A stretch of 64,000 nt of DNA, taken from assembly GCA_038227875.1 (NCBI GenBank), contig JBBRPR010000025.1, positions 32,001 to 96,000 on the forward strand. Reading direction: 5' to 3'. This DNA is from Planctomycetota bacterium (GTDB lineage: Bacteria > Planctomycetota > SZUA-567 > H5-PLA8). Below the pieces are notes generated by a model. The model was not told where the DNA came from and searched no databases. It saw only the letters and a list, made by a program, of their open reading frames with translations. Shown piece by piece: positions 1,283 to 56,040 of this stretch. Made by a program: the position numbers and the translations under genes. Every line of letters begins with the position of its first letter. The first letter of the stretch is position 1.

Positions 1283-1350
1283 CAGCCGCTCCTTCGCCGT
1301 TCGAAATGCAGGCGTCACCAGGCAGACTTTTTAGCACTAAAATCATTTCT

Positions 1351-1362
1351 CTGACATGTCAG
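1351..1362. promoter_or_regulatory. Palindrome CTGACATGTCAG, candidate GntR operator
   Basis: Perfect 12-bp palindrome just downstream of a minus-strand TTGACT-17-GATACT promoter-like element. A 10/12 copy (CTGAAATGTCAC) lies at 2168-2179, upstream of the regulator. Confidence 0.45.
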
Positions 1363-1416
1363 TAGTATCCAACCTGCGGAGCCCTAAGTCAAGCCGGAAG
1401 TTTACTTCACCTCCAC

Positions 1417-2109: not shown

Positions 2110-2550
2110 GGTAAACATCTTACGCCATCTCACATGGTTTCCAATAGAATCACCCGTTCCAAAGTCACTGAAATGTCACGCTGTTTCGGCATCCCTCGCG
2201 CTCTGCCGGCTATTCAATGTCAAATTACGCAACACTGGACTTATTAACTATGGATCGTATAAATCGCATAGTAGGAATGCCGAGCTAATTTAAATAACTA
2301 TTGAAAGTTAGGTGTCGCGACGGTGGTGCAATCTGCAAAACGTCCCTCTTCCATGTTTCCTGTACTTCTATAAACACATTAGCGCGAATCGACGGTCGCC
2401 GTACGATAGCTTCGGTTCAACAATTCCGTCATCCTCCGTCGTCAGCTCCGCATACTTTCATTGCTCTTTGAATTGGCCTTTGGTCGTTGAGGACACCACA
2501 ATGAAAGGTCACTGGCTTGAGCGCGACTTGTTGACCTGGATGCGTAACGC

Positions 2551-3768: not shown

Positions 3769-3871
3769 GCGTTGATTGCTGTTGTGCTGTGAAGAAACTC
3801 TGAAAAGTAATCCGTTTAGCCCGCGAGGCGTCGTAAAGTAATGGCTCGTTAATAGAGGGACGAAACCAATC

Positions 3872-4525
3872 ATGACGCGATACCTCCGTACGCTGCTGCC
3901 CATCCTGTTGGTGTCTTTTACCTGCGCGTCACTCATTGCAGAAGACAACGACGCGCCGAAAACTTCCCCACCGTCGATCAAGGCGGAATGGAAAGACGAT
4001 CTCAAAATCGTGTCCTATCGTGGCCGTGAATATATCGTGGGCGCGCGTAACGATAAGGCCCGGGAATTCCCGCTCGTCGGACGCCGCACGCTACACGCGA
4101 CGGTCTACTCCGCGGACACCTATCCGATGACGTTGCAGGCTCAGGAAACCTTCGTGATCTTCGACAAATCGCGCCAAGTGACGCTGGTTTACAACATCGT
4201 TACTTGCCTGAAAGGCAAGGATACCGAGAACAGCGAGAAGACCGATTGGGTGGGCGAGATTCAGCCGGCCGGCGAGCACTATCAGGGCGACATCATGCTC
4301 TTTCGTAAATACGACAAGAAAGGCCCAGCCATGAAAGCGCCGTATTATTCAATGGGCCGCGATTTTCCGATCGGCCTTAATGGCGAAGGCGGCGTCACCG
4401 TTCAATACAATTATCTCGGTGACGTGAATCTCGATCTTGCGGCGCGCGAAGTCAGCGATGAAATGGTGCAGCGCATCGTCGACGATCACGACAAGCATTA
4501 CAAAAAGCAGGAATCAAAAGACTGA
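3872..4525 (+). CDS. Hypothetical secreted protein
   Basis: Signal-peptide-like N-terminus, coding-like composition, followed by a hairpin. Confidence 0.7.
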   Translation: MTRYLRTLLPILLVSFTCASLIAEDNDAPKTSPPSIKAEWKDDLKIVSYRGREYIVGARNDKAREFPLVGRRTLHATVYSADTYPMTLQAQETFVIFDKSRQVTLVYNIVTCLKGKDTENSEKTDWVGEIQPAGEHYQGDIMLFRKYDKKGPAMKAPYYSMGRDFPIGLNGEGGVTVQYNYLGDVNLDLAAREVSDEMVQRIVDDHDKHYKKQESKD

Positions 4526-4530
4526 TCCAG

Positions 4531-4559
4531 AACCAGGGGAAGAATTCGTCCCCCTGGTT
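4531..4559. terminator. Hairpin between convergent genes
   Basis: AACCAGGGG...CCCCTGGTT inverted repeat. Confidence 0.55.
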
Positions 4560-4590
4560 AGAATCCAATACTACCTATTGCCCTACCGGC

Positions 4591-39112: not shown

Positions 39113-39936
39113 ACCGCCGCGGTCGCTGCGGTGCGTCCCGGCGCCATGCGGGGTGCCACCGGTTGAATCAGCGCGCGGCGCTCCGGCGTGAGCCGTTCCA
39201 GCAATTCCTCCGACGGTACGTAATTGAAGCGCGTCGCGATGTAGTGGGGCGAGTAGCGGTAGATCAGGATGCGCCGGTCGCCGGGATTCGTGCGCGCGGC
39301 GGAGCCATGCGTCACCGCGTCGGTGAAGAGCAGCGCGTCGCCAGCTTTCAGGTACATCTCCTGCATGCCCATCGCCGCACTGGCCGGTTCGGTATCGCGG
39401 TAGACTTGGTTGGGGCCGGCGGCGATGAATGGGTGAATCACCGCGCACTTGTGGCTGCCGGGAATCAGCACCGTGGGCCCGTCGCCAGGACCGATGTCGT
39501 TGAGTGCCATAAGAATATTGATCTGGCCGACCATCCAATTTCCCGAATGGTGCCGCGTCACGCACGGGAACGCCGGGTAGTGACCACCGGAATGAATCCC
39601 GATGAAGCCGCCCGGTCCGCGCAGATTCAAGAAGCACTCGTTGATCGAAAGTCGCGCGAACTGATTGCCGATCCAGCGCTGCACGTCACTGTACCACGCG
39701 GGGTGGTCGAGCAGGTCCTCGAAGATGGTGCCGCCTTCGATGATGTTCTGATAATTCGTGCCGTCGTTGCCCTGGTACGAATGAACGTGAACGTTTCCGA
39801 TCCACTCTCCGGGCTTGCGCCGCGGCTGCTCATCGACCCAGCTATTGATTGCACGCAGTCGTTCGGGGCTGAGTACAGACTTGAGGACCAGGTAGCCCTG
39901 CAGGTCGAAGAGGTAGTCCCGTTCTTGTTCAGTCAT
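39109..39936 (-). CDS. PhyH-family Fe(II)/2OG enzyme with HxG motif (candidate halogenase)
   Basis: FDLQGYLV, H115-S-G, LIPGSHK, H210 and a distal RR; the family call is firm, the reaction is not. Confidence 0.8.
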   Translation of the reverse strand: MTEQERDYLFDLQGYLVLKSVLSPERLRAINSWVDEQPRRKPGEWIGNVHVHSYQGNDGTNYQNIIEGGTIFEDLLDHPAWYSDVQRWIGNQFARLSINECFLNLRGPGGFIGIHSGGHYPAFPCVTRHHSGNWMVGQINILMALNDIGPGDGPTVLIPGSHKCAVIHPFIAAGPNQVYRDTEPASAAMGMQEMYLKAGDALLFTDAVTHGSAARTNPGDRRILIYRYSPHYIATRFNYVPSEELLERLTPERRALIQPVAPRMAPGRTAATAAV

Positions 39937-40044
39937 GCTGTGATCCCTGTGAGTCGTCTAAGGCGTTCATTCGAGTTACCATATTACGCCGGAGTCTCTT
40001 GGGAGTCTTTGCATCAGCCATGCGACATGTTACCATTTAGCGCT

Positions 40045-40938
40045 ATGATTACTCCGACCAGATTGCCGCTGGACCGCGCGTTGGATGGAAAAGTGGAGCT
40101 GTCGCGCGCCCGGTGGACCAGCTCCCGACCCCACCGTCACGCGGAGCTGGAACTGAATCTGCTCGTCCGCGGCCAGGGCGAGTATGTCGTCAACGACCGC
40201 AAATATGTGTTGCGAGCCGGTACGATCGCGTGGCTGTTCTCCGGGCACAGCCATTTGCTGCTCAATCAATCCAGCGACTACGAAATGTGGGTGGTGGTCT
40301 TCAAACCGCGGCTGGTCCGGCGGGTCTGCACGGCGCCAGCGGCGCGGATTCTATGTCGAGCCAATCCGGCCGGGCACTTCTGCAAAAGCATTTCGGTCGC
40401 CGTATTCCAGCAACTCGATCGTCTCTGCCGGAACGTGGCTGCAGCGGATGCTGATCTTCCTCGCATGAACGCCGGCCTGGGTTACCTGCTGCTGGAGGCA
40501 TGGGACGTTTATCAACGCAGCACTGCGGCGCTGGAGAGTACCGCGCTCCATCCGGCTGTGGAGCGCGCGGCGCAATTGCTCAAGGAAGAAGGAAGCGATT
40601 GGGAATTTGAACGTCTCGCGCGCGCTGCGGGATTAAGCGCGTCGCGGCTGGGGCGATTGTACAAGGAACAGACCGGCCTGACGATCGTCGACTACCGCAA
40701 CCAACTTCGCGTGCAGCGTTTCATCGATCTTTTCGGCTCGGGGCAGCGCATTACCATGCTTCGTGCCGCACTGGAGGCCGGATTTGGCAGCTATACGCAG
40801 TTTCACCGCGTCTTCGCCAAAGCCGCCGGATTTCCTCCGCGCGTCTACTACCGTAAGCTGCGCGAAAATCGCTTCGCCGCGCAGCAGTCTCTTACACCTG
40901 CCCGCCGCAGAGATGAATATCTCCGTCCACCACCGTAA
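40045..40938 (+). CDS. AraC family regulator (divergent from the PhyH gene)
   Basis: HRHAELELNL cupin; AGFGSYTQFHRVF. The true start lies far downstream of the ORF-track start at 39163. Confidence 0.88.
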   Translation: MITPTRLPLDRALDGKVELSRARWTSSRPHRHAELELNLLVRGQGEYVVNDRKYVLRAGTIAWLFSGHSHLLLNQSSDYEMWVVVFKPRLVRRVCTAPAARILCRANPAGHFCKSISVAVFQQLDRLCRNVAAADADLPRMNAGLGYLLLEAWDVYQRSTAALESTALHPAVERAAQLLKEEGSDWEFERLARAAGLSASRLGRLYKEQTGLTIVDYRNQLRVQRFIDLFGSGQRITMLRAALEAGFGSYTQFHRVFAKAAGFPPRVYYRKLRENRFAAQQSLTPARRRDEYLRPPP

Positions 40939-41236
40939 CGCGGAACGATTTCACGCATTCGTGAACTTCGCTGCCTTTTCCAGTGCACAGATCGAATTTG
41001 TGGGCGTGAAGCGGACAGACGACCGAACCGTTTCCGGCCAGGCCATCGGCCAGCGGACCGCCACGGTGCGGACAGCGATTCTGCACGGCGAAAATCCGCC
41101 CGTCCCGCTGACGGAAGACGGCGACTTCTTCGCCCATGACCTGAAAGCAGCGACCGAGTCCGAACGGTACTTCGGAAGCGGGGCCCAGGTTGAAAACGGT
41201 CTGGCGTGGTGTTTCCAGAATGGTGTGCGTCGACAT
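40892..41236 (-). CDS. nirD: Nitrite reductase small subunit (Rieske-type)
   Basis: CPHRGGPL...CPLH Rieske motifs; directly downstream of nirB. Confidence 0.9.
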   Translation of the reverse strand: MSTHTILETPRQTVFNLGPASEVPFGLGRCFQVMGEEVAVFRQRDGRIFAVQNRCPHRGGPLADGLAGNGSVVCPLHAHKFDLCTGKGSEVHECVKSFRVTVVDGDIHLCGGQV

Positions 41237-41254
41237 CTTCGGTGTTCTCCTCAG

Positions 41255-43747
41255 TTATGATTTCACTTCAATTGCGGGTTCCACGCCGCGGAACTGGGAC
41301 GGCCATACCGGCGCCTGGGCTTCCGTCCAGGGATCGACATACGCATCGACGGCCTTCTGAATATCGGCGTCCAGTCGCGCGCAGATGCCTTCACTGTCGT
41401 TGACCAGAATGTCGCGCAGCAGTTCCACGCCGAGGCGTTCGAGGAAATGGTACGAACGCTCCTGGTACCGGCCGTGTTCGCGGTAGTACTGCATGAAGCG
41501 CCCCATGATCTTCAGCACTTCGTCGTGCGAAGTGACGGTGCAGAGCAGATCGCCTTTCCGCACTGCGCTGCCCGCCGCGCCGCCGACATAGATCTCCCAA
41601 AGTCCGCCTTCAATCGCGACGGCGCCGAGGTCCTTCACGTAGGCTTCTGAGCAGTTGCGCGGGCAACCGGCCGTGGCGAGCTTCATCTTATGCGGCGATT
41701 CGATGCCCTGGAAGCGGCGCTCGATCTTCTGCGCCAGCGCGATCGAGTCGCCGACGCCGTAGCGGCAAAAATCGGTGCCGACGCAACTCTTGCAAGTGCG
41801 GAACGCTTTCGTGTACGCATGTCCGCTGGGCATCCCCAGATCCTGCCAGACGCCAGGTAAATCTTCCTTCTTGATGCCGAGCAGATCGATGCGCTGGCCG
41901 CCGGTGATCTTCACCATCGGCACGTTGTATTTGATCGCAACGTCGGCGATGCGGCGGAGTTCATCGGGCGTCGTGACGCCCGCGTAGATGCGCGGGATCA
42001 CGGAGTACGTCGCATCCTTCTGAATATTGGCGTGCACGCGGTCGTTGATGAAGCGCGCGTCGCGTTCGTCTTCGTACTCATCCGGCCAGAGCGACTTGAG
42101 CAGCGAGGCCAAGCCCGCTTTGCTCGCCGCGTCTTCTTTGCCGCCGGCCAGTTCGCGGAAGACGGAACTGACCGACTTCAAGCCGCGCTTGCGAATCTCC
42201 TCGACCAGCGCCGCTTTTTCGTACGGCACGCCGGGCACGTAGTAATGTTCGCTCGGGTCGTCGCCCGCCGCGCCGCAGCCGGCGAGAATTTCGGTGATCA
42301 GCGGCTTGCAGCTTCCGCAACCCGATCCGGCTTTCGTGCAGGCTCCGATCTTGCCGACGCTGTTACAGCCGCCATCGCGAATCGCGGCGACGATCTGTCC
42401 TTTGCTCACACCATTGCAATTGCAGATCTGCGCTGCGTCCGGCAGGTCGGAGGCTTTGACCAGCGACTTGCCGGTTCGCGATCCGAAGAGCAGTTCCGCG
42501 CGCACGTCCGGCAGCGGCGTGTTGTTTTGGAAGAGCTGCATCAGCGACCCGAAATTGTCCGTCTCGCCCAGCAGAATCGCGCCGGCGAGCAGGTTGTCGC
42601 GGATGATCAGCTTTTTGTACACGCCGCGCGACGGCTCGCTGAAGGTGAGCACTTCGTCGGTCGGTTTCGCCGGACGCGTTTCGCCCAGTGAGCCGACTTC
42701 GACGCCCATCACTTTCAGTTTTGTGCCGAGCTTGGAGCCCAGGTACGCGGCGGTTTCGCGCGTGCCGGTGATGACATCGGCCAGCACCTTCGCCTGTTCC
42801 CAGATCGGATCGACGAGTCCATAGATGCGCCCGCGGTGCTGGACGCATTCGCCCAGCGAGAAGATATCGGGATCGCTAGTGCGCATCTGGTCGTCGACCA
42901 CGATCGCCTTCTCGACGGTCAATCCGGAAACCGATGCCACTTCCGTGATCGGGCGGATGCCGGCGCTGACGACGACCATGTCAGTCTCAAGGTACGAGCC
43001 GTCCTTCAGCGCCAGCCGCTTGATCGCGCCGTTTTCGCTCTCGATGCGCGCGGTGATTTTCTCGGTCAGCACCTTCACGCCCATCTTTTCCATCGCGGCG
43101 CGCAGCATCGCGCCGCCTTCGGTGTCGAGTTGCTGCGCCATGAGCTGCGGCGCGGCTTCGAGCACGGTGACTTCCACGCCATGCGTCAGCAGTCCGCGCG
43201 CGGCTTCGAGACCCAGCAAACCTCCGCCGATGACAGCGGCCTTCTTGCAATTCTTCGCGTAATGAGCGATGCGTTCGCAATCATCGATGGTGCGAAAGAG
43301 GAACGTGCCGGGCTGGCCGAAGCCTTCCATCGGCGGCACGAACGGCCGCGAGCCGGTTGCGATGATGATCGCGTCGTAATGCTCGGTGACCGGCGGCGTG
43401 TCTGGTTGCGACTCGGCATTTGCGGCGTAGGCCAGTGCGTCCTTCTTCAGCGGCGCGCCGATCACGACACGATTTTCGCGGTCGATCTTCGCGACCTTGA
43501 CGCCGGCATGGAGCGTGATGCCGTTCTGCGTGTACCAGCTTAGCGGATTGATGAAAATCTCCGCCGGCGCCTGCGTGCCGTTGAGCACGTTGCTGAGCAG
43601 AATGCGGTTGTAGTTCCCGTAGGGCTCGGCGCCGAACATGACGATGTCGAAGTGGTCGGGCGCGCGAGCGAGAATCTCCTCGACCACGCGGGCGCCGGCC
43701 ATGCCGTTGCCGATCACGACCAGCTTTTTGCGCTTCATCTTAACCAT
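41255..43747 (-). CDS. nirB: NAD(P)H-dependent nitrite reductase large subunit
   Basis: [26 protein letters not shown]...CGSC, and siroheme/4Fe-4S CKSCVG..FC and GCPRNC. Confidence 0.95.
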
Positions 43748-45992
43748 GTGTGAGCTCCTGACGGGAGCGCGCCGCCGTTGCTTTGTGCAACGCGACCGCG
43801 CCGGTTTTGTACGACGGTTGCTTGGAATGCGGATCGAAAACAGACGCCGTCAGCCGATTGACTTCCGGGTAATGCATGGGCAGAAAAACCTGGCCGCGCT
43901 GGATCATCGGCGTCAGCACCGCGCGCGCCGTGAGCGTGCCACGCCGCGAAGAGACTTCCACATCGCCGCCGTCCAGAATGTTCAGCGCCGCGGCATCTTC
44001 AGGGTGAATTTCAACGTACAGATTTTTCGGGTAGAGCGAACGCAGCGTCGCAGACTTCGAGGTGCGCGTCCCGGTATGCCACTGCGCCGAAGTTCCGCGG
44101 CCAGTGAGCAGCGAAAACGGATAGGCGTCGTCGGTAAGTTCGGGCGCGGCGGTCGGTGCATCGAAAATGAAGCGCGCGCGCTGGTCTTCGGTGAAAAATT
44201 TCCCGTCTTCGAAGAGGCGGCGTTCGTTCACGGAAAGATCCGTGCCCTCCGCGCAGGGCCATTGCACGCCGCCGCGCCGGTCGAGCATCGCGTAGCCGCC
44301 GATGCCCGTGATGTCGCAGGGCCGGCCGCGAGAAAGTCGCTGGAGAATGCGGAAGACGCTCTCCGGGTCCTTCCACTCTTGGAAGAGATCGCCGCAGCCC
44401 CAGTAATGCGCGGCGAGTTTGGAAATGTAAAAATCTGAGAGCGCTTCTCCGGGGGCGCGCGCGACTTTTTTCAGCAGGCCGATGCGCCTCTCGGAATTGA
44501 TGAACGTCCCTTCCTTCTCGCCCCAACCCGCGGCCGGTAACACGAGATGCGCGAGCTTGGCGGTGTCGGTGGTGTGGTACATGTCCTGGACGACGAGAAA
44601 TTCGAGCTTCTTGGCGAGCTCCATGAAATCGTTCTGATTGATCCAGGAATGCGCGGAGTTCGTGCCGAAAATCCACAGCCCTTTGACGACGCCGGAGCGC
44701 ACGCCGTCGATGATCTCGTTGTACGCCCAACTGTTGCGCGTGGGGATGCGGCTGGAGTCGAGATGGAGCAGCTCTGCGACGTCTTCACGGTCGGCTTGCT
44801 TGGTGAAATCGCGGCCGCCAAACAGATTTGTCGTGTTGCTGAAAATCCGCGAGCCCATCGCGTTGCACTGGCCGGTGATCGAATTCGCGCCGGTGCCGGG
44901 CCGCCCGATGTTGCCGGTCATCAGCGCGAGGTTGATGATCGCCTGCGCCGTCCGCGTGCCCTGGTGGCTCTGGTTCACGCCCATCGTCCACCAGAACGAG
45001 ACGCGCTTGCGTTCGTGAATCAGTTGCGCGAAGGCCGTGAGTTGCTCCGCGGAAATCCCGGTCGCCTGCGCAGTGCGTTCGAGCGTGAATGGCGCGACGA
45101 AGGCTTTGAATTCCGCGAAGCCGCCCGTGTGGCGTTCGACGAAACTCGCGTCGATCCAGCCGTTGTGAAAAAGAATGCGCGCGATGCCGTAGAGTAGTTC
45201 CAGGTCGGCTTTCGGCTTGAGCGCCAGATGGAGCGTCGCGGCCTGCGCGGTTTCGGTTTTGCGCGGATCGATCACGACGATCGCCGGATTGTTCTTGTTG
45301 CGCAGCACGCGCTCCCACAGGATCGGGTGCGCGATGCAGGGATTGGCGCCGAAGAAAATCAGCGCGTCGGACGCTTCAAAATCGGCGTAGGTGAACGGCG
45401 GCGCGTCGAAGCCGAAGGACTGCTTGTACGCCGTCGCGGCCGTGGCCATGCATTGGCGCGTGTTGCCGTCGCCGTGCTCAATGCCCATGCCGAACTTCGC
45501 CACCGCACCGAGCAGCGCGAGTTCCTCGGTCGGAAGCTGCCCCGAGCCGATCCAGGCCAGCGAATCAGCGCCGTGGTGATTTTGAATATCTTTGAAGCGC
45601 GACGTGAATTCCCGCATCGCGTGATCCCAAGTCACCGGCCGCATCGCGCCCTGGGCATCGCGTAACAGCGGGCGCGTGGCACGGTCGGGAGCGTGGAGCA
45701 CGTTCAGCGCTTCCCACCCTTTCGGGCAGGCCATGCCGAGATTAACGGGGTAGTCCGTGGACGCCGTGAGATTGATCGCTTCGCCATTGCGGAAGTGAAT
45801 GTTGAGTCCGCAACCCGTGGAACAAAAGCCACACACGGATGTCGTTGTCGCGTCCGGCGCGAGGCGCTCGGGAACTTGGCCGAGTCCAAACCCGCCGGAC
45901 TTCAGCGCGAGTTGCTGCGAGAGCACGCCATCCCACTGACGGAAGGCGTGGCGCAGGGATTCGGCCGTGAGATTCAGTCCCGGAACGCTCAT
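43740..45992 (-). CDS. nasA: Assimilatory-type molybdopterin nitrate reductase catalytic subunit (NasA/NarB-like)
   Basis: CGFCSTGC...[35 protein letters not shown]...QWHT; start 45992 overlaps the upstream stop (ATGA). Confidence 0.9.
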
Positions 45993-47617
45993 CGCGCGAG
46001 CCCTCCGGGCATCTTCAACGGCACGACGGCGGTGAAGTAGAGGTAGCGTTCGCACAGTTCGCTGACCAGCCAGAGCGCCGCAGCGACTGCCACCATCGCC
46101 ACAACACGTTCGGTCATGAACGTGGCGAGCAGAGGAAGCGCGATTCCGCCAACGATTCCGGTGACGAAGCGAGCGATGGTCGCGGTGCGAAGGTGATCGC
46201 GCATTAGCCGCGCGGATTTCTGATCGTAAGTCGCTTCCGCATTCGACGCGTGAAGCAGGTAGCGCAGTTCCAGCGCGAGTTTCAGTCCGCACAGCGTGGC
46301 AGCGAGCGCCGCGAAAGTCGGAAGACTCGAACTGCGCGAGAACGCCGCCGCGGCCAGCGAGCTCAAGCCGCCGGCGCAGAGCACGGAGAGATAGAATCGC
46401 GTCGCGCTGAGCGAAAAGCGCCAGAACGGGCGGCGCGTGTCGGCGTAAATCATCACCGAGCAGAAGACTGCGACGAGGCTCACCACCACCGCCACCGGAA
46501 GCAGCGCGGGAAGAAACAGCGCCGCACTATCCACGGCCGCGACGGCACCAAACGCGGCGACTTCGCGGCTGAGCCACGAGGTTCGCAGACCCAGGATCGC
46601 GCGGAATGCGAAGAGCGGACGGCCGAGATGCAGCAGCGCGCAGTGCATGCCAATCAGGTGCAGCGCCAGCGACGCAATCGTGGTGATGCGCGCCGGGCGC
46701 GCGTCGCCGTTGACGCTTAGCACCGACGCCGCCAGCATTCCGCCTGCGGCAAATTGGGTCAGCACCAGGGTCCAGACCAGCGCCATGTGACTGTGCGCGG
46801 GAGAAAGCTCGGTGGCGTCGCCGGCGTTCATCAGTTCTGGCAGCGGCTGCTGCGAACGGTAAATGGTGGAGGGGAGGGTATAGTCGGATTTCGGCGCGCT
46901 CGGAACGAGAACGGCAGCGCGCGAACGCTCGACAATTTTCTCGCGTGAAACGGTGGTGATGCGGATGGCGGTGTTCGGGCAGGCTTGCACGCAGGCCGGA
47001 GCTTCCTGCTTTTCCAGACGTGACGAACACATGTCGCACTTGCGGACGATACCGCGCGACGCGCTGTACTTCGGCACGTCGTACGGGCATTTTAGAATGC
47101 AGTACTGGCAACCGATGCACTGATCGTCGAGATGCTTGACGATGCCGGTCAGCAGATCCTTGTCGTACGCTTTGACCGGGCAGCCGTCCATGCAAGCGGG
47201 GTGCGCGCAATGGTGGCACGCGGCGGTCACCATTTTCATCAGTGGCAACTGCGGATCGGAACTGACGATCTGCCCGACCGCGCGCCACGTTTCGCCTTCA
47301 TCCAGTCCATTGAGGCTGTGGCACGCGGTGACGCAGGCTTTGCAGCCGGTGCAGGCGTCGAGGTCTACTTCAAACGCGTACTGTTCGCCGGGCCCCGGCG
47401 TCGTGAGTGGAATCAAGTCGCGGTAGTATTTGGACTGCACGGGCGCCACGGCGTGAGCGTGCTGCTGCGCGAAACGCTCAACGGCGGAGAGGTCGCGCTG
47501 ATCGCGAAGCAACTCGGCGATCAGGGATTCTCCGCTGGCCGGCAGTTCTGGAACGCGCCGTGTCGGTTCGGCCCGCTCCAGAACTGGCGTCCAATCGATG
47601 AGTGCTTCGTTTGACAC
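45989..47617 (-). CDS. Fused four-cluster ferredoxin (DmsB/NrfC-like) plus DmsC-type membrane anchor
   Basis: [18 protein letters not shown]...CP, CIGCQYC...CP, CDMC...PACVQACP; then about 8 TM with HLGRP and SWLSRE. Confidence 0.88.
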
Positions 47618-47640: not shown

Positions 47641-48453
47641 TTACTCAGCCGTTACCAGATGCGTGTCGCGTGCCGCGAGGTAATGCAGCAGGTGCTTACG
47701 GACGCGGTCGTATTCGGGATCGTCGAGCATGCGTTCGCGCGAGCGCGGACGCGTCAGCCCGACCTCGACCACTTCGCCGATGTGCGCGGCGGGTCCGTTG
47801 CTCATCAGAATGATGCGGTCGGAGAGATAAATCGCTTCGTCGACGTCGTGCGTGATCATCAGCACCGTCTTGCGCTCGCTCTCCCAGATTTTCAGCAGGT
47901 CGTCCTGCATGCGCCCACGGGTCAGGGCATCGAGCGCGCCGAAAGGTTCGTCGAGCAGCAGCACTTTCGGCTGAATCGCGAAGGCGCGCGCGATGCCGAC
48001 GCGCTGCTTCATGCCGCCGGAAATCTCCGATGGTTTTTTGTGCAGATGCGTGCCCAGCCCGACCTTCTGCAACTGTTTTTGCGCGGACGCACGGACTTCG
48101 TTCTTCGGCATCGCCGGGAAGACATTGGCGATCGCCATCTCCACGTTCTGCGCGACGGTCAGCCACGGCAGCAGCGAATGATTCTGAAACACTATGCCGC
48201 GGTCGGGGCCCGGTTCCCGGACCACCTTGCCTTCGAGCGTGACCGAACCGGACGTCGCCTGGTCGAGTCCCGCGACGATGTTCAGCAGTGTGCTCTTACC
48301 GCAGCCGGAATGTCCGATGATCGAAATGAACTCGCCCGCATCTATCGCCAGCGAAACGTCGCGCAGGGCTTCGTAGTCCGGACGCCCGGCGCCGCCGAAG
48401 AACACCTTGCTGACGGAGGCGATGCGAAGATAGGCTTCAGGTGTCGGAGGCAT
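47641..48453 (-). CDS. Nitrate ABC transporter ATP-binding subunit (NrtC/NrtD-like)
   Basis: GHSGCGKST, ISGGMKQRV, LLLDEPFGALDALTR. Confidence 0.92.
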   Translation of the reverse strand: MPPTPEAYLRIASVSKVFFGGAGRPDYEALRDVSLAIDAGEFISIIGHSGCGKSTLLNIVAGLDQATSGSVTLEGKVVREPGPDRGIVFQNHSLLPWLTVAQNVEMAIANVFPAMPKNEVRASAQKQLQKVGLGTHLHKKPSEISGGMKQRVGIARAFAIQPKVLLLDEPFGALDALTRGRMQDDLLKIWESERKTVLMITHDVDEAIYLSDRIILMSNGPAAHIGEVVEVGLTRPRSRERMLDDPEYDRVRKHLLHYLAARDTHLVTAE

Positions 48454-48472
48454 CAACGATTCCCTTCGTCTA

Positions 48473-48532
48473 ACCAGTGTGCCAATTGGCACACTGGTCA
48501 AAATCCAACGTCTGGCCAATTGGCCAGACGTT
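48473..48532. repeat. Two tandem perfect 26-bp palindromes
   Basis: ACCAGTGTGCCAATTGGCACACTGGT (48473-48498) and AACGTCTGGCCAATTGGCCAGACGTT (48507-48532). Confidence 0.9.
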
Positions 48533-48541
48533 CAGCATCGC

Positions 48542-49435
48542 TCAGTACGCGACTGCTTTTTCGATCTTCATCATGATCACATTGAGGATCAGTCCGATCG
48601 CGCCGATCAAGCCCATCGCCAGGATTGAGCGGTCGATCGAGCCGGCGTTGTATTGATCCCAGCAGAAGAAGCCGATGCCGTCCTGACCGTTGAGCATTTC
48701 CGCGGCCACAATCACCATCCACGCGATGCCCAGCGAAATGCGAAGTCCGGTGACAATGTGCGGCAGCGTCGCCGGCCAGTAGATCTGCCGGAAAATTTGC
48801 CAGCGCGTTAATTTCAGCATGCGCGCGACGTTGGTGTAGTCGGGGTTGATCTGGCCCACTCCGAAAGCGGTATTGAGCACCGTGGGCCAGAGCGAGCAGA
48901 TGAAGATCACAAACGTCGCGGCCATCGTCGGCGGCTTCAGCGTTTCGTTTTGCAGCGCCGGCGCGGAAAAGATCACCAGCGCGACCGGATACCAGGCCAG
49001 CGGCGAGATCGGGCGACAGAGTTCGATGATCGGATGAACCGCGCGGCGGACGAACGGCGAGCTGCCGATCACGAAGCCCAGCGGAATGGCGATGAACGCG
49101 CCGAGCGTAAAGCCGCAGAGCACGCGGGTGAGGCTGTAGAGCAGTAGCAGCGGCAAGCCGACGCGGTTCTGATCGCCCCAGAAATTCGCGCGGACGAATT
49201 CAATGCAAAGCTTCAACGTCACCAGCGGCCCTGGCAGATCGTGTGCGAAACAACTGATCAACGCCCACACGCACAGGGAAAATGCAATGCCAACGAGCGC
49301 CGGAAACGCGCGCGTGCGAACCCACACGGCAAACGGCCGGTCGCGCGGCGCAAGTTTCGCGACGGGTGCTTTCTTCGCCGCCGCCGGCGCAGCGGCAGCG
49401 GTCGCGTCAGTAAGTGCAAGGGCGGGCTGATTCAT
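48542..49435 (-). CDS. nrtB: Nitrate ABC transporter permease
   Basis: RPISPLAW, FICSLWPTVLNTAFGV, TGLRISLGIAWMVIVAAEML. Confidence 0.9.
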   Translation of the reverse strand: MNQPALALTDATAAAAPAAAKKAPVAKLAPRDRPFAVWVRTRAFPALVGIAFSLCVWALISCFAHDLPGPLVTLKLCIEFVRANFWGDQNRVGLPLLLLYSLTRVLCGFTLGAFIAIPLGFVIGSSPFVRRAVHPIIELCRPISPLAWYPVALVIFSAPALQNETLKPPTMAATFVIFICSLWPTVLNTAFGVGQINPDYTNVARMLKLTRWQIFRQIYWPATLPHIVTGLRISLGIAWMVIVAAEMLNGQDGIGFFCWDQYNAGSIDRSILAMGLIGAIGLILNVIMMKIEKAVAY

Positions 49436-49459
49436 TCCGTCTCTCCGTTGATGTTGCCA

Positions 49460-50737
49460 CTACGCCTTCAGCGCGAACGCCTGCGTGTACGCTTCCGGAT
49501 CGGCCGGATCGAACGTGACGCCATCGAAGAGCGTCTCCTTGCCGCGCGATTCCAGTCCGCCGGCTGGTGCCGCGACTCCCGCGCGCTTGCACGCTTCGGT
49601 GTAAATGTCGTGGCGCATGATCTTCTTCGCTTCGGCCAGGTAGTCGGGCTTGTCGGCGAGCATTCCCCAGCGGCGGTGCTGCGTCATGAACCACGTCGCG
49701 TGGCTCAGGTACGGCACAGTCGTGTCGCGCTCGAAAAAGCGCATGTAATCGGGATCGTCGACGACTGGCGCGCCGGGCGCGTGGACGTACTTGCCCTGCA
49801 GCCGGCCCAGGATCGTCTCCGGCTTGCAGTTGACGTATTCGGTTTTGCCGATGAGCTGCGCGGCTTCCTCGCGGTTTTTCATGTCGTCGAGCCAGCGGCA
49901 GGCTTCGAGCGTCGCGGCGGTCAGCGCGATGCAGGTCTTCGGGTTGGCCAGCGCGAACGATTCCATCACGCCGAGCACTTTTTCGGGATGGTTCTTCCAC
50001 AGCGCCTGCGTCGTGATCGCCGTGCCGCCGATGCCTTCGTCGACCGCTCGAGCACCCCAGGGTTCGCCGACGCAGAAGCCGTCCATGTTGCCGGTCTTCA
50101 TGTTGGCCACCATCTGCGGCGGCGGAATCGTGATCAGCTTCACGTCCTTGTCCGGATGCACGCCGCCCGACGCAAGCCAGTAGCGCATCCACATCGCGTG
50201 CGTCCCGGGCGGAAAGGTCATCGCGAACGTGAACTTCGCCTGCTTTTCGACGATCTGCTTTTTGATCTCCGCGGGCGTCTTCACGCCGGCGTCGAGCATC
50301 GGTTTCTTGATCGTGATTGCCTGGCCGTTGAGGTTCAGGCATTGCAGCACGCACATCGGCACTCTTTTGACCGGCGCGCCGACATCGCCGACGCCGAGCG
50401 AGGAGCCCACGCACATGCCGAGCAGAATGTGCGCGGCATCGATCTCGCCTTTTTGAATCGCATCGCGCGTTGCGCCCCAACTGGCCATCTTTTTGACGCG
50501 GACGTTTAAGCCGTATTTTTTGTAGAGGCCTTTCTCGGAAGCGATGACCAGCGGCGAACAGTCCGTGAGCGGAATGAAGCCGAGCGTCAGGTCGGTCTTC
50601 TCGACAGCGTCGTCGGCCCGGGCCACGCCGCTGAGCGGCTTGATCATCCCGCCAGCCGTCCAGGCTGCGGCCGCAATGCCGGCGAACTTCAGAAATCCGC
50701 GTCGATCCGTGTTCGTGTGTTCGGATTCGTTCTTCAT
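49460..50737 (-). CDS. nrtA: Nitrate ABC transporter substrate-binding protein (NrtA/CmpA family), Tat-exported
   Basis: RRGFLK Tat motif, LGFIPLTDC, TFPPGTH, PPPQMVANM, FCVGEPW, HPEK. Confidence 0.9.
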   Translation of the reverse strand: MKNESEHTNTDRRGFLKFAGIAAAAWTAGGMIKPLSGVARADDAVEKTDLTLGFIPLTDCSPLVIASEKGLYKKYGLNVRVKKMASWGATRDAIQKGEIDAAHILLGMCVGSSLGVGDVGAPVKRVPMCVLQCLNLNGQAITIKKPMLDAGVKTPAEIKKQIVEKQAKFTFAMTFPPGTHAMWMRYWLASGGVHPDKDVKLITIPPPQMVANMKTGNMDGFCVGEPWGARAVDEGIGGTAITTQALWKNHPEKVLGVMESFALANPKTCIALTAATLEACRWLDDMKNREEAAQLIGKTEYVNCKPETILGRLQGKYVHAPGAPVVDDPDYMRFFERDTTVPYLSHATWFMTQHRRWGMLADKPDYLAEAKKIMRHDIYTEACKRAGVAAPAGGLESRGKETLFDGVTFDPADPEAYTQAFALKA

Positions 50738-50773
50738 TTCAGTGCCGGCTCCCAGATTCAGAATTTTGGAAAC

Positions 50774-50843
50774 AAAAAAGGCGCAAGAATGAACGCCGTG
50801 CGTTCGTCCCCGCGCCTTCAACTTGCAGATCGCTTTCATCTGC
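50774..50843 (-). promoter_or_regulatory. 5' leader with intrinsic terminator and two upstream or overlapping hairpins (putative attenuator)
   Basis: mRNA AAGGCGCGGGGA..GAACGC-ACG-GCGUUC..UUCUUGCGCCUUUUUU lies 37 nt before the nrtA start; upstream hairpin GCAGAU-GAAAGCG-AUCUGC. Confidence 0.7.
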
Positions 50844-50905
50844 CCATTAAGGCGGCCCGCTGGATTGACTGCGAGCTGCGCTATGAATTGTCGAGGAGCG
50901 TTGAA

Positions 50906-50921
50906 AGCACGCGTCATGCCA
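50906..50921 (-). promoter_or_regulatory. Sigma54 (-24/-12) promoter of the nitrate operon
   Basis: Minus strand TGGCATGACGCGTGCT (GG-N10-GC); IHF-like ATCAATCAGTTA at 50951-50962. Confidence 0.7.
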
Positions 50922-51108
50922 GATCGACACGTGTGTACCGTCAATGTGCGTAACTGATTGATGGATTGATCTTTGAAATTTTAGAGGAGCTGAGCGCCAA
51001 ACAGAACTAAATGGAAGGGCTGGCCCTTATTGAACGAATAGTTGTGCGATGTTGAGCACAGCGGTTGAAGTTTGTCTTGTCGCAGACGAAGACCCCTGGC
51101 CTTTATCC

Positions 51109-51903
51109 TCAACATTTCGACGGCGTTTGCGTGTTCTGCGCGAGCAGATCCGAAAGCGATTTTCTCAGGTTTGCGAGTTCCTTCGACTTAAAGGAATCCT
51201 TCGTTTTTTCGAGCACATCGATAGTGCCGCGCAGCGCCAACTCGTACTGCGCCAGCCGCGGGCACTTGATCATGCGGCACAGATCGTTGCTGACGTCATT
51301 TTCGATCCGTCCGGTGCGCAGCACATCCATGGTCTGTTTCAGGCTGCTGGCGGAGTTCACGATGTTGTTGAGCGTCATTGCCAGGAACTGTTCCAACGTC
51401 AACGCGTTGGCCTGCGGCGCCGATGACGCGGAGAGCATCGCGCTGCGTTCCAGCGCCTGCAGTCGCTCCACGGAATGCGTCATGTCCTCCTGCGAACGCT
51501 TGATGTCGCGGAGCACTTCGCCCTTCTCCAGCGCGCGTGAGACCCGCTGCAGAAATTCGGTCTCGTCGATCGGTTTGACCAGGTAATCGACCACGGACAT
51601 GCGCAGCGACTGCACGGCCGATTGCACGGTCGGGAATCCGGTTACGACGATCACTGGCAGCCACGCCCGGCCGCTTTGCGTGTCGGCCAGAAATTCCAGG
51701 TCGCTGCTGCCGGGCATGTTGATATCAGTGATCAGCAGGTCGAAGTGCTTATTCTTCAACGCGTCCGCGGCTTCAATGGCGCTGAGCGCCGTGTCGCAGC
51801 GGTAGCCGTGATGGCGCAGCATCGCGGCGGTGGTACGCAGAAATATCTCTTCGTCATCGGCTAACAATATCGTCGCGGTCGGCGACTTTTTTGGCGCAAT
51901 CAT
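51109..51903 (-). CDS. Response regulator with REC domain and unrecognised helical output domain
   Basis: ILLADDE, LITDINMPG, VTG, YLVKP; C-terminal coiled-coil-like region with no HTH or AAA+ motif visible. Confidence 0.85.
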   Translation of the reverse strand: MIAPKKSPTATILLADDEEIFLRTTAAMLRHHGYRCDTALSAIEAADALKNKHFDLLITDINMPGSSDLEFLADTQSGRAWLPVIVVTGFPTVQSAVQSLRMSVVDYLVKPIDETEFLQRVSRALEKGEVLRDIKRSQEDMTHSVERLQALERSAMLSASSAPQANALTLEQFLAMTLNNIVNSASSLKQTMDVLRTGRIENDVSNDLCRMIKCPRLAQYELALRGTIDVLEKTKDSFKSKELANLRKSLSDLLAQNTQTPSKC

Positions 51904-52023
51904 TTCTTTTCCACCCCGTACCCACGTGCAGGAGTCGGTTGAACACAAGCAACGTACCAAACGCCCCACGAATAATTCCGTATGGGAAATGGCTGAACCG
52001 TGTGCGGCGTTTTGACGCGCTGG

Positions 52024-54330
52024 CTAAATTTGCGCAGAGTGGTGCGAGTTGTGCTCGCGTTTCAACACTTCATTCAGCGCGCGAAGTTGCGTGTCCGCAT
52101 CCGCCAGATCGCGGCGGAACGTGACAAAAATCGCGCGCGCCAGCTCCAAATTTCCAGCTCGGCAAGCGCTTTCCAGTTTTGACACGCCGTCCAGGGCACG
52201 CACCGCGCCGAGCGCCCCGGCGGCGCTTTTGATTGCATGCGCCAGTTGCGCGGCCTCGTTTAATTCGCCAACGTCAAGATGTTTTGCGATTCCGCTGACG
52301 CGTTCGGTGTTGCTTGTTTCAAAAATCCGCAGCAGTTCGTCGGGAAGATTGGGATCTTCCGGCGTCTGCAGTTGCCACAGTCGACGCAGCAAGCTCGCGT
52401 CAATTACCCGTTCGCTTGAGTTCGATGGAGCCGGCGCGGATTCGCTCAAATCAGGCGTTGGCGCGATCTCAATCCACGGCAGCAGCGCCGCACGGAGTTC
52501 CTCGATCTGCACCGGCTTGGCCAGATGCGCGTCCATGCCCGCAGCCAGACATTTTGCGCGCTCTTCGGATGAATTGTGTGCCGTCAGCGCGAGGATCGGA
52601 ATTCGCTTCCCCGCGCCTTCGTTTTCGCGAATGCGGCGGGCCGTCGCGTAGCCATCGAGCACTGGCATTTGGCAGTCGAGCAGGATCAGATCGAAGCGCT
52701 CGCGCTCGAGGCGCTCCAGCGCTTCCAGCCCATGACAGGCCAGTTCGCACGGAATGCCCAGATGCTTCAACTGCAGCGCGATGACGCGCCGGTTGACTTC
52801 GACGTCCTCCACGACCAGCACGCGGACGTGAGCCGCCCCGACCGCGGCCTTGCGCAGCGCCACGGCGATCGTTGGCTCATTCTCTGCGGCGATTTGGAAC
52901 TGCGCGGTAAACCAGAATTCCGAACCCTTGCCCAGTTCGCTCTCAACGCCGATGTCCCCGCCGAGCAGTTTCGCCAGTTCGCGGCAAATCGTTAGTCCCA
53001 GCCCGAATCCCGTGTGCTCGCGCGTCGGCGAATCGTCGGCCTGCGTGAACGGTTCGAAAATGCGCGCGCGATCCTGCGGCGCGATGCCCGGCCCGGTATC
53101 GCGCACACCGACGCGCAGCGTCACGCCGCGGTCCGTGCGCACCTGCACCGTCGCGCTGACGGTAATCTCGCCGCGCTCGGTGAATTTGATCGCGTTCCCC
53201 AGCAGATTCAGCGTGATCTGCCGCAGGCGGCGGGCGTCGCCGCGCAGGCGGGGCAGCAGATCGGCACTCAAATTCAGCTTCAGCGGCAGCGACTTCTGCT
53301 TCGCCGCAAACGACTGAATCTCCACCGCTTCGCGAAGCACCACGGCCGGATCGAATCTCTCCACGGCCAGCGACGCCTTTCCGGAGCTGAGCTGCGAATA
53401 GTCCAGCACGTCGTTGACCAGCGCATGCAACGTGTCGGCGCTGAGTTGCATCGTCTGAGCGAATTCCTGCTGCTCTTTCGTCAGGCGCGTGGTGAGCAGC
53501 AGTCCGCTCAAGCCTACGATCGCGTTCAACGGCGTGCGGATTTCATGGCTGACGTTGGCCACGAAGGCCGACTTCGCGCGCGTCGCGGCTTGCGCGTCCT
53601 CCAGCGCCTTTTCCAGCGCTGCGTTCTTGGTTGCGAGTTGCTCTTCGGCCGAAATCATGCGGGCAAACGACGAATGAATCTTGGCCACCGCAGGGCGGAA
53701 AACGAAGAGAGCTTCCAGCGCCAGCACCACCAGCAGCACGGCGAACAGGGCGAGTTCAAAGAGCTTCAACTTGGCCACGCGTGCGCGGGCGTCTTCGTCG
53801 TAGCGAAAGACGATATGGTCCATCGTGGAAAGAAACGCGCCTTCGTGAGCAAGGACCGTTTTCAGCGCGTCCTGCGGCAGCGCCGCGCCCAGCGCGTGGG
53901 CCTGCAAAATTGCTCGCGCGGCGCTGAGCATCGCCTCGAAATGCGGCGCCGCCTCGCCGTACATGCGCTGAATCTCGGCGGAATTCTCACCGGGAAGTTC
54001 CAGCTCCGCATCGCCCTTCTGCAACCCGCGGTTCGATCGTTCCCAGAGCTCCGCGACGGCTTTCAATTCGTCGAATCGCTGCGCGTCGTCGGGATCGGCC
54101 GTCAGCGCCAGCACGCATTTGCTCAAGCGCTGGCTGAGCATGCGCTGCCGTCCGGCGAGATTGACCACGCGCGCATCGCGCGATTGGGTGAGCAGCGCGC
54201 GCTGAATCAAAAACTGTCCGGCCAGCGAGAGCGCCGCAACCAGGCTCAATGCCACGATGTACCGGACGCGCAGTGAGTTGGATGCGATGCGCCGCGATAC
54301 ATTCAGGCGCGCTGAAGAGTCCATGTCCAT
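52024..54330 (-). CDS. Hybrid histidine kinase with NarX/PilJ-type nitrate-sensing domain (HisKA, HATPase, REC, Hpt)
   Basis: TM followed by [13 protein letters not shown] (P-box-like) and a second [29 protein letters not shown] Hpt. Confidence 0.88.
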
Positions 54331-54411
54331 CCCGGATCGTTCGTCCAAACGTAAGATGTTTCTTCCGATGCTAACAAAACGGTAAAGCCCAGGCGCAACC
54401 TTCGGGCCAAA

Positions 54412-54474
54412 TGCAGGCGGGACGCCCGCACCACAATTCATGGATCGCGATGCGCAACAGGCGTCCCGCTTGCA
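54412..54474. repeat. REP-like inverted pair
   Basis: TGCAGGCGGGACGCCCGCACCAC (reverse complement GTGGTGCGGGCGTCCCGCCTGCA) and GGCGTCCCGCTTGCA. Confidence 0.6.
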
Positions 54475-54552
54475 AACCCTTGCACGCTCCCACGTCTTGC
54501 CGTCCACCCTTAATGGGTTATCCTCACGACCGAACATCAGCGAAAGGCATGC

Positions 54553-56040
54553 ATGCTCGATCCCGCTCCGGACGTTCCGGAAATTCAGAAGACAGAATTC
54601 GAATCGTCCGCATCCGTTCCCCGCGAGTCCCAGCGCCTGGACCACATGGACCAGCTGGGTGATTCGTATTACGCGATCCTGCTGCTCACCGGACCGCTGG
54701 TCCTCTCGTCGACCGGCCTGATGCTGATGCATATTTTCGACGCCGTGCTGCTCTCGCGGTATTCGAAGCAGGCGATAGCGGTGGTCGGCTCGGCGAGCAT
54801 GGCGGCGTTCGTGTTGATCAGCTTTTTCATCGGCATCACCGCGTACACGGCCACGTTCGTGGCGCAATACATGGGCGCGCGGCGGCCGGAGCGCGTCGGC
54901 CCGGCGGTGTGGCAGGGAATTTATGTCGCGCTGGCCGCGGGCGTGTTCACGTCCCTCGTCGGAACGCTGATCGCGCCGCCGCTCTTTCACTGGGTCAATC
55001 ACGGCCCGGCGCTGGAACTGCTTGAACAGCGCTACTTCCGGATCATGTGCTACGGCGCGACGTTCAGTCTGCTCGGCGCGGCGCTCTCGGGATTTTTCTC
55101 CGGGCGCGGCGACAACCGTACCTTAATGATCGTCCAGTTGAGTGGCTTCGTGATCAACGCCGGCTTGAGCTACTGCGCCATCTTCGGCCGCTTGGGCCTG
55201 CCGGAACTCGGCGCGCTCGGCGCCGCCACTGCGACGGCCTGCGCGCAGGGTTGCGTCACGCTGATGCTCTCCGTGATTTTCCTGAGCCCCCGCCACCGCG
55301 CGAACTACCAGACGTGGACCTCGCGCGCGTTCGATTGGGCGCTGCTCAAACGCATGACCTATTTCGGTGCGTTCAACGGCATGCGCGCTGTAACCGAGCT
55401 TCTCGCGTGGACGCTCTTTCTCTGCTTCGTCGGACGGCTGGGTGAAGACGTGATGGCGATCACCAACATCGTCTGGCGACTCAACGGCATCGCGTTCTTT
55501 CCGCTGATCGGTTTGTCGACGGCGATCGCCACGCTGGTTGGACACGCGCAAGGCCGTCAGGATTCCCGCCGCGCCGAAATCATCACCTGGCGCGGCGTGA
55601 TCATGGCCGAAGGCTGGATGTTATTTGCCGCGTCGCTGTTCGTACTCTTTCCGCGCCCGCTGTTGAATCTGATCATGGGCGGCGAAGGCGCGTCGGAGCT
55701 GGCTCCGATGATCGAGACCGGCACGAGTCTGCTCCGCTTCGTGGCGCTCTATTGTCTGCTCGACGGACTGAACATTGTTTTCATGGGCGCGCTGCAAGGC
55801 GCCGGCGACACGCGCTGGACGCTGATCGCCTCGTTCATTCTCCACGTCATATTTCTGACGGCGCTGTTCGTCATCGACGCGTACTACCAGAACCTCTTGA
55901 TCTTCTGGACCGCCGCGACCTCGTTCGTGATGCTCCAAGCCGGCGTCTGGGTCCTGCGCTTCAAATCTGGGAAATGGAAATCGATGCGCGTCATTGAAGG
56001 CGATGGCGACGGTGAAACCGCACTGCCCTTTGCCCATTAG
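54553..56040 (+). CDS. MATE family efflux transporter
   Basis: About 12 [34 protein letters not shown]. Confidence 0.92.

Follow-up and report, generated by a model that had tools for sequence, protein, structure and literature searches.

In a window of 64,000 nucleotides from a Planctomycetota bacterium (assembly GCA_038227875.1, contig JBBRPR010000025.1, positions 32,001 to 96,000 of the forward strand; "the window" is this whole stretch, and all coordinates refer to it), we analyzed two overlapping genes. One encodes a molybdenum bis(pyranopterin guanine dinucleotide) (Mo-bisPGD) reductase (P0002) and the other, directly upstream, a protein in which a four-cluster iron-sulfur (FeS) domain is fused to a membrane anchor (P0001). 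With a probability of roughly six in ten, we read this pair as a cytoplasm-facing menaquinol:nitrate oxidoreductase of two polypeptides and three modules with an SoeABC-like build. In the proposed scheme, for which we infer the electron donor, the in vivo orientation, and the physiological role from the observed anatomy, motifs, gene pairing, and charge bias, nitrate would be brought in by an NrtABC-type transporter and reduced to nitrite at the Mo-bisPGD center of P0002, with Cys181 as the molybdenum ligand. The electron donor would be menaquinol. A DmsC-type site in the eight-helix anchor (H330, S347, and E352), facing the cytoplasm, would oxidize it, and the electrons would travel along the fused ferredoxin domain, by way of its four [4Fe-4S] clusters, to reach FS0 in the reductase; with NAD(P)H, NirBD would then turn nitrite into ammonium. 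With the quinol and nitrate sites both facing the cytoplasm, the nitrate step should be electroneutral; even so, quinol as the donor should let NADH first traverse the respiratory chain. An earlier prediction made from the DNA letters alone (the original prediction) had proposed a cytoplasm-facing, quinol-fed nitrate reductase distinct from Nar, Nap, and classical Nas, and this is the best-supported reading as far as sequence-based tests go.

The catalytic subunit

Only three domains, all of the Mo-bisPGD type, were recognized in P0002 by Pfam. Since the protein ends 20 residues past the last of these, it has no BFD-like or other 2Fe-2S tail in Pfam; a catalytic subunit of about 750 amino acids (aa) lacking both this tail and a signal for twin-arginine translocation (Tat) had been predicted, and the Pfam, NCBIfam, and Tat scan results (the last given below) bear this out. 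The N-terminal extension (aa 1 to 48) is conserved and specific to the clade. All four cysteines of the FS0 [4Fe-4S] motif (C54, C57, C61, and C89) are invariant, and the molybdenum ligand C181 is followed by M182. In an alignment with NapA of Desulfovibrio desulfuricans (2jim_A), positions C140, M141, D155, M308, and R354, which we take to line the nitrate site, fall on C181, M182, D196, M337, and R382 of P0002, residues that are invariant in 46 homologues; NapA E156 aligns to A197.

P0002 reached no NCBIfam equivalog cutoff. Its scores were 493 bits for Fdh-alpha (cutoff, 666), 464.3 for NasA_Halo (NF041323; cutoff, 1000), 445.5 for NasC (NF047855; cutoff, 1100), 332.7 for NapA (TIGR01706; cutoff, 930.55), and 108 for dmsA_ynfE (cutoff, 778). 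In a sequence search of the PDB, NapA was matched with an E value of 7.6e-95 and the best hit was FdhF. A formate dehydrogenase, as suggested by source names and by the FdhF hit, was considered and ruled out by the Cys-Met motif and the gene context; in the alignment to FdhF, formate dehydrogenases have Cys or Sec followed by His at the ligand position. The features of P0002 that fit the assimilatory nitrate reductase class are its predicted cytoplasmic location, the Cys-Met pair, and the neighboring genes for nitrate uptake and nitrite reduction, and database records name its relatives "assimilatory nitrate reductase catalytic subunit."

The FeS/anchor fusion

In P0001, Pfam recognized Fer4_11 at residues 127 to 220 (E = 2.2e-19) and DmsC (PF04976) at residues 277 to 528 (51.6 bits; cutoff, 22.3). 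The protein consists of a poorly conserved N terminus (aa 1 to 27), a conserved docking extension (aa 28 to 75), a DmsB/PsrB-like domain for four [4Fe-4S] clusters (aa 76 to 235), a linker, and an eight-helix domain of the DmsC/NrfD type (aa 277 to 530). Four motifs of the CxxCxxCxxxC type (C89/92/95/99, C134/137/142/146, C167/170/173/177, and C194/197/209/213) supply 16 cluster cysteines, every one of them invariant across 49 homologues, in agreement with the predicted fusion of a four-cluster DmsB-like domain to a DmsC-like anchor. On the NCBIfam model DMSO_dmsB the protein scored 123.7 bits, below the cutoff, and the closest PDB sequence matches of its ferredoxin part were PsrB (2vpw_B, 1.9e-20) and FdnH.

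An AlphaFold 2 (AF2) model built from the 49-row alignment (mean predicted local distance difference test [pLDDT] score, 83.3; predicted template modeling score, 0.82) has eight long transmembrane helices beyond residue 277. Foldseek matched the front half of this model to FdnH, PsrB, and ArrB and the back half to PsrC (2vpw_C; template modeling score of 0.66, normalized to the target) and ActC. A Pfam score above the gathering threshold and the eight helices place the membrane domain in the DmsC/NrfD family. Protein-atlas clusters that matched this domain were labeled DmsC or unnamed (scores of 0.91 or lower). A search for unfused anchors returned 44 short proteins (E ≤ 1e-5), mostly on contigs of 1 to 5 kb and likely fragments, and none of these 44 was named Soe.

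Putative quinol site and predicted membrane orientation

The 49-row alignment was matched by hhalign to Escherichia coli DmsC with a probability of 96.5% (E = 8.8e-10; 266 columns). DmsC residues His65, Ser82, Glu87, and Arg271 map in this match to H330, S347, E352, and R524 of P0001, all four of which are invariant in 49 of 49 homologues, a set with a mean column identity of 51%. In the available part of a 2021 review of NrfD-like proteins, these four DmsC residues are included in the quinone site, and mutational work is cited by which His65 and Glu87 matter for menaquinol oxidation (PMC8076601). The predicted feeding of the enzyme by quinol is supported, as far as sequence-based tests go, by the hhalign match and the invariant site. 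Three genes of the MqnA/D family scored above the cutoff in the same genome, and therefore menaquinone is likely the quinone of the host.

To place the domains relative to the membrane, Lys and Arg residues were counted in the loops, with the helices taken from the AF2 model. The mean count was 15.1 on the side of the ferredoxin domain versus 2.5 on the opposite side, and the former was the larger in 49 of 49 homologues; the corresponding counts in E. coli DmsC were 4 versus 8, the reverse bias. Because the Lys- and Arg-rich loops lie on the ferredoxin side, the FeS domain and with it the reductase are probably cytoplasmic by the positive-inside rule. The anchor is probably inverted relative to E. 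coli DmsC, which would put the putative quinol site on the cytoplasmic face. No match to the NCBIfam Tat model was found in P0001 or P0002, and NrtA did match it. A scan by motif and hydropathy, which recognized 4 of 6 control proteins, found a Tat-like N terminus in none of the 49 anchors and none of the 46 reductases. The lack of a Tat signal and the uniform charge bias both speak for the cytoplasm-facing enzyme that had been predicted. Tat export and an outer-side quinol site, which mark the DmsABC type, were found in neither protein; P0001 and P0002 appear instead to match the SoeABC type, which lacks an export signal and whose anchor is inverted so that the quinone site faces the N side.

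Predicted complex of the two subunits

The original prediction had put forward complex modeling of the two subunits as a check. With P0002 and residues 28 to 270 of P0001 as the input, the model scored 0.92, 0.90, and 0.92, compared with 0.00 for the best of three controls; the same mark was attained by 116 of 157 solved complexes and by 2 of 215 mismatched pairs. The runs shared at least 92% of contacts, and the pLDDT of the partner was at least 87. In the model, the FS0 loop of P0002 (residues 85 to 94) is in contact with residues 87 to 104 of P0001, which hold the first Cys motif of its ferredoxin domain, and the conserved N-terminal extensions of both P0001 and P0002 are part of the interface. 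The predicted assembly agrees with the proposed electron path, although the pass may reflect likeness to the solved FdnGH and PsrAB complexes and not be independent evidence.

Conservation and spread of the pair

Among 8,000 scored candidates, 7,994 were relatives of P0001 at E ≤ 0.001, and the best 120 of the relatives all carried both DmsC and Fer4 Pfam families. Gene context was read in two samples, one of 80 genome loci retrieved with P0001 and one of 80 metagenome loci retrieved with P0002. By record title, the genome loci belonged to Planctomycetota (55), Verrucomicrobiota (12), Sorangium or Myxococcota (9), Poribacteria (3), and a metagenome-assembled genome (MAG) labeled Yoonia (1). 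In 74 of these 80 loci the anchor gene is followed directly, in the same orientation, by a reductase gene (58 to 65% identity) when a coverage of at least 50% is required, and in 75 when at least 30% is required; in the other 5, as read from the coordinates, the contig ends no more than about 630 bases from the anchor. In the metagenome sample the anchor lay directly upstream of the reductase in 69 loci and upstream after a gap of about 640 bp in 2, and the remaining 9 had less than 900 bp of upstream DNA, so that the anchor was upstream in 71 of 71 evaluable loci. The pairing of anchor and reductase is obligate and far beyond chance. The original prediction had suggested that such gene pairs may be widespread in genomes of the Planctomycetota-Verrucomicrobiota-Chlamydiota group; this was confirmed, and the pair extends to Sorangium and Poribacteria. 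Cultured organisms that carry it include Lacipirellula parvula PX69, Adhaeretor mobilis HG15A2, Singulisphaera sp., and Sorangium cellulosum So0157-2. A NirB-like gene was present in the flanks of 51 of the 80 genome loci and 16 of the 80 metagenome loci, which are shorter; 29 of the 80 genome loci, some of them short contigs, had no NirB-like gene within 8 kb.

The MAG labeled Yoonia sp. (L033) bore the only alphaproteobacterial label in the 80 genome loci. Its match statistics were the same as those of a Lentimonas sp. locus (L031; 48% identity over query residues 30 to 540), a sign that this MAG may be misbinned and the occurrence not genuine.

Phylogenetic position of the reductase

A search of 1.84 billion representatives yielded 1,870 relatives of P0002 at E ≤ 1e-30. 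Of 150 listed representatives, 88 were within 640 to 1,000 aa and 62 outside this range; after removal of 6 of the 88 in which the FS0 motif was not found or the start lay inside the protein (P0278, P0293, P0304, P0321, P0325, and P0332), 82 full-length representatives and 8 added rows were placed in a FastTree phylogeny with Shimodaira-Hasegawa (SH)-like support and a midpoint root. One clade (SH-like support, 95) held 11 rows with the N-terminal FGLG extension together with two odd rows, P0246 and the long-branched P0264. Its sister group was made up of shorter reductases (about 695 aa; P0251 to P0254) that lack the extension and include one from Cetobacterium. A branch with a length of 0.5 changes per column and a support of 100 separated both groups together from the groups of NasA-like proteins of 880 to 950 aa, Tat-bearing (Nap-like) proteins, NasC-like proteins, and Cys-His formate dehydrogenases. 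With a clade of its own and all equivalog scores under their cutoffs, P0002 upholds the claim of an enzyme distinct from Nar, Nap, and classical Nas.

P0246 (929 aa, on a single 5.2-kb contig) shares 56% identity with the reductase and has a 2Fe-2S domain like that of SdhB (Pfam Fer2_3) fused ahead of its catalytic domains; it could be an alternative wiring of the same enzyme or an assembly artifact.

Alternative explanations

Several observations weigh against the menaquinol:nitrate reading. The case for quinol use is built from four conserved residues and homology. In the NasBGC system of Paracoccus, proteins of the NirB/NirD type can pass electrons from NADH via a Rieske protein to Nas, and NirB and NirD are encoded in the very operon described here. 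The host also has a second Cys-Met reductase, on contig C53, which reached 789 bits on the NasC model, compared with 445 for P0002; because it scores higher on that model, either of the two enzymes may be the one that serves assimilation. The ATGA coupling is not family-wide, the gap between the genes being a few to about 300 bp elsewhere. Within the phylum the fusion is patchy, with 13 carriers in 201 sampled Planctomycetota genomes (this one included); one family had it in all 9 of its genomes, and none of the 3 other genomes from the host's own family had it. The phylogeny itself comes from FastTree only; it is rooted at the midpoint, its support values are SH-like, and several of its rows are long or odd in composition.

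The same chemistry and architecture might serve a dissimilatory role, either respiratory or redox balancing, through ammonification with NirBD or excretion of nitrite at low oxygen; this role, compatible with the menaquinol:nitrate reading, seems to us somewhat unlikely. In its favor, quinol-linked three-module molybdoenzymes are typically respiratory in the available parts of two surveys (PMC7331816 and PMC8076601), and the available text of the 2020 genome paper on Lacipirellula parvula PX69, which notes the gene arrangement in one sentence under the label "NapA," reports a positive test for dissimilatory nitrate reduction and places the operon under anaerobic respiration (PMC6995999). The positive test in this carrier also counts in favor of the menaquinol:nitrate reading. 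Assimilation could moreover be covered by the NasC-like enzyme on C53. However, the operon contains genes for an ATP-driven importer of the NrtABC type and an NAD(P)H nitrite reductase, the usual assimilatory set, and a quinol site on the cytoplasmic side would give no redox-loop charge separation. The fusion might also be a tether and a wire rather than a quinol oxidase, with the FeS chain fed by NAD(P)H via NirB/NirD or by soluble ferredoxin and the membrane domain merely keeping the enzyme beside the nitrate importer. The NirB-like genes near the pair in 51 of 80 genome loci would suit this arrangement, as would the Rieske-type nature of NirD, a feature shared by NasG of Paracoccus. We nevertheless find it quite improbable: H330, S347, E352, and R524 are invariant in a set of 49 sequences whose columns average 51% identity, 29 of the 80 loci (some on short contigs) lack a NirB-like gene within 8 kb, and an eight-helix domain would be a costly tether.

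A periplasm-facing enzyme like Nap, or one with a substrate other than nitrate, is highly improbable. The "NapA" label in the available text on Lacipirellula implies the periplasm (PMC6995999), NapA is a strong match by sequence in the PDB (E value as above), and with all scores under the NCBIfam equivalog cutoffs the substrate is without assignment by a curated model; but none of the 49 anchors or 46 reductases has a Tat-like N terminus, the charge bias would put the FeS domain inside, the NapA active-site positions are retained, and genes for nitrate transport and nitrite reduction adjoin. In a further-reaching version of the menaquinol:nitrate oxidoreductase, the pair would represent a fourth widespread class of prokaryotic nitrate reductase, coupled to the respiratory chain on the cytoplasmic side, and its NrfD-type domain, in which charged residues within or close to the helices are invariant (K446, R483, E520, E523, and R524), would export the protons of quinol or act as a proton pump. 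We regard this version as speculative and rather doubtful; if it were true, nitrate assimilation would itself conserve energy.

Comparison with known systems

Textbooks recognize three bacterial nitrate reductases and tie assimilation to NADH or ferredoxin. Against this background, the enzyme most likely resembles SoeABC running in reverse and falls outside the Nar, Nap, and curated Nas families. NasA, NasC, and NarB share with P0002 a cytoplasmic Mo-bisPGD subunit with an FS0 cluster and the Cys-Met pair and have nitrate transporter and nirBD genes as neighbors. P0002, however, scores far under the curated cutoffs, forms its own clade with the conserved 48-aa N-terminal extension, has neither a 2Fe-2S tail nor a separate diaphorase gene in the operon, and is always paired with the four-cluster/anchor protein. 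NarGHI is likewise a quinol-fed nitrate reductase with a cytoplasmic active site, quinol feeding being what is proposed here. Its NarI is a di-heme cytochrome b with an outer-side quinol site, whereas the anchor here is of the DmsC/NrfD type and predicted to be heme free with an inner-side site, and P0002 has no NarG match. As for NapA, P0002 is under the TIGR01706 cutoff, has no Tat signal, and has no cytochrome gene (NapB) in its operon. DmsABC and PsrABC consist of the same three modules, and the anchor here is a Pfam DmsC protein that retains the quinol-site residues, with folds like those of PsrB and PsrC. The differences are the lack of Tat export, the charge bias opposite to that of E. 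coli DmsC, and the fusion of the B and C subunits, and P0002 is not of the DmsA/PsrA type, as its low dmsA_ynfE score indicates.

In the available part of the NrfD review, SoeABC (Allochromatium vinosum and Aquifex aeolicus) is the sole complex with an NrfD/DmsC-type anchor described as facing the N side, with an inverted anchor, and the quinone-site residues of SoeC are given as His65, Ser82, and Glu87 (PMC8076601). From what that text describes, SoeABC shares with the present pair a Mo-bisPGD subunit without an export signal, a four-cluster subunit, and an eight-helix heme-free anchor. It differs in direction, sulfite being oxidized and quinone reduced where a flow from quinol to nitrate is proposed here; SoeB and SoeC are separate proteins, and their counterparts are fused in P0001; and P0002 belongs to the Nas/Nap/formate dehydrogenase branch, the comparison with SoeABC being one with its published description. 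If the donor is quinol, the pair would be a second, reverse-running case of the inverted SoeABC design.

The available text of a 2020 phylogenetic survey has the clade of formate dehydrogenase, Nas, Aio, and Nap without canonical four-cluster or anchor partners (PMC7331816), and that of the 2021 review lists fifteen kinds of NrfD-like subunit, none in a nitrate reductase (PMC8076601). Contrary to the former, insofar as its available text goes, an enzyme of the Nas branch is here always paired with a four-cluster/anchor module, one that is probably inverted. A literature search, which covered few subscription journals, found no membrane-bound or quinol-dependent assimilatory nitrate reductase, no biochemistry of the pair, and, apart from the one sentence on Lacipirellula (PMC6995999), no mention of the arrangement. 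The pairing has been noticed once in print, uncharacterized biochemically, and widespread. Its carriers are abundant soil, freshwater, marine, and sponge-associated lineages, and the source names of the partner protein include "formate dehydrogenase iron-sulfur subunit." Should quinol be the donor, surveys of metagenomes in which the reductase counts as plain "nasA" and its partner goes under that source name would misread the energetics and redox wiring of nitrate assimilation in these groups.

Operon layout

Seven minus-strand genes run in series from nrtA to nirD, none separated from the next by more than a few tens of bases (Table 1). The nrt genes (47641 to 50944) lie upstream of the fusion, just beyond the span of 40892 to 47617 covered by the original prediction, whose placement of nirBD and an ABC (ATP-binding cassette) importer in the same operon as the pair holds by the profile matches and by the contiguity of these genes. 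P0001 starts with GTG, and a Shine-Dalgarno sequence, GAGGA, stands 7 nucleotides (nt) 5' of this start. The predicted ATGA overlap can be read in the sequence, the motif being common to the stop codon of P0001 and the ATG start of P0002. The TAA stop of P0002 and the first ATG of nirB overlap as well, by 8 nt. Pfam domains of nirB are Pyr_redox_2, Fer2_BFD, NIR_SIR_ferr, and NIR_SIR. The nirD-like gene scored 65 bits on TIGR02378, under the cutoff of 74.65, and the real start of the nrtA-like gene is probably inside the listed open reading frame (ORF). Among 8 sequencing runs checked for this stretch, no RNA run containing it was listed, and a single DNA run contained most of it.

TABLE 1 Genes and protein domains in and around the operon, in window coordinates
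Feature	Positions	Strand	Basis
Hybrid histidine kinase, PilJ-type periplasmic sensor domain	52024-55002	minus	Pfam HisKA, HATPase_c, PilJ PF13675, Hpt
Response regulator	51109-51969	minus	Pfam Response_reg; only receiver domain recognized
nrtA-like periplasmic substrate-binding protein with Tat signal	49460-50944	minus	Pfam NMT1_2, 318 bits; TIGR01409 at aa 79-110
nrtB-like nitrate-type ABC permease	48542-49435	minus	TIGR01183, 191.2 bits, slightly below cutoff of 209; Pfam BPD_transp_1
nrtC/D-type nitrate ABC ATPase	47641-48519	minus	TIGR01184 (ntrCD), 337.7 bits (cutoff, 291.8)
P0001, 542-aa FeS/anchor fusion	45989-47617	minus	Pfam Fer4_11 and DmsC
Four-cluster ferredoxin domain of P0001, about aa 76-235	46913-47392	minus	16 Cys, four motifs
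DmsC/NrfD-type membrane domain of P0001, about aa 277-530	46028-46789	minus	Pfam DmsC, hhalign, Foldseek
P0002, 750-aa Mo-bisPGD catalytic subunit	43740-45992	minus	Pfam Molybdop_Fe4S4, Molybdopterin, Molydop_binding
nirB, NAD(P)H nitrite reductase large subunit, 830 aa	41255-43747	minus	TIGR02374, 841 bits (cutoff, 578)
nirD-like Rieske-type small subunit, 114 aa	40892-41236	minus	Pfam Rieske, 65.9 bits, and Rieske_2, 52.4 bits, both above cutoff
AraC-type regulator	39163-40938	plus	Cupin and HTH_18

The response regulator and the hybrid kinase (51109 to 55002), directly upstream of nrtA, are a plausible nitrate-sensing pair, the link being one of position only. Downstream of the operon, the last 47 bases of nirD are shared with the ORF of the AraC-type regulator on the opposite strand, an ORF whose long N-terminal portion is probably noncoding.

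Other reductases in the host genome

The host assembly comprises 9.3 Mb and is 88% complete, and the fusion is present in a single copy. No NarG-type protein (TIGR01580) scored over the cutoff in this 88%-complete genome, the best score being 60.6 bits (cutoff, 1084), for another gene. The second Cys-Met enzyme, on contig C53 (about 800 to 6700; locus L086), is cytoplasmic by its lack of a Tat signal and has 739 aa, and its NasC score given above is below the cutoff of 1100. Next come genes for a four-cluster ferredoxin, a Rieske protein whose membrane segment contains RRDFTKML, and an anion transporter of the TDT family, and a 380-aa protein with a weak TcuB-like match is encoded upstream. 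The C53 locus may encode another membrane-linked oxyanion reductase.

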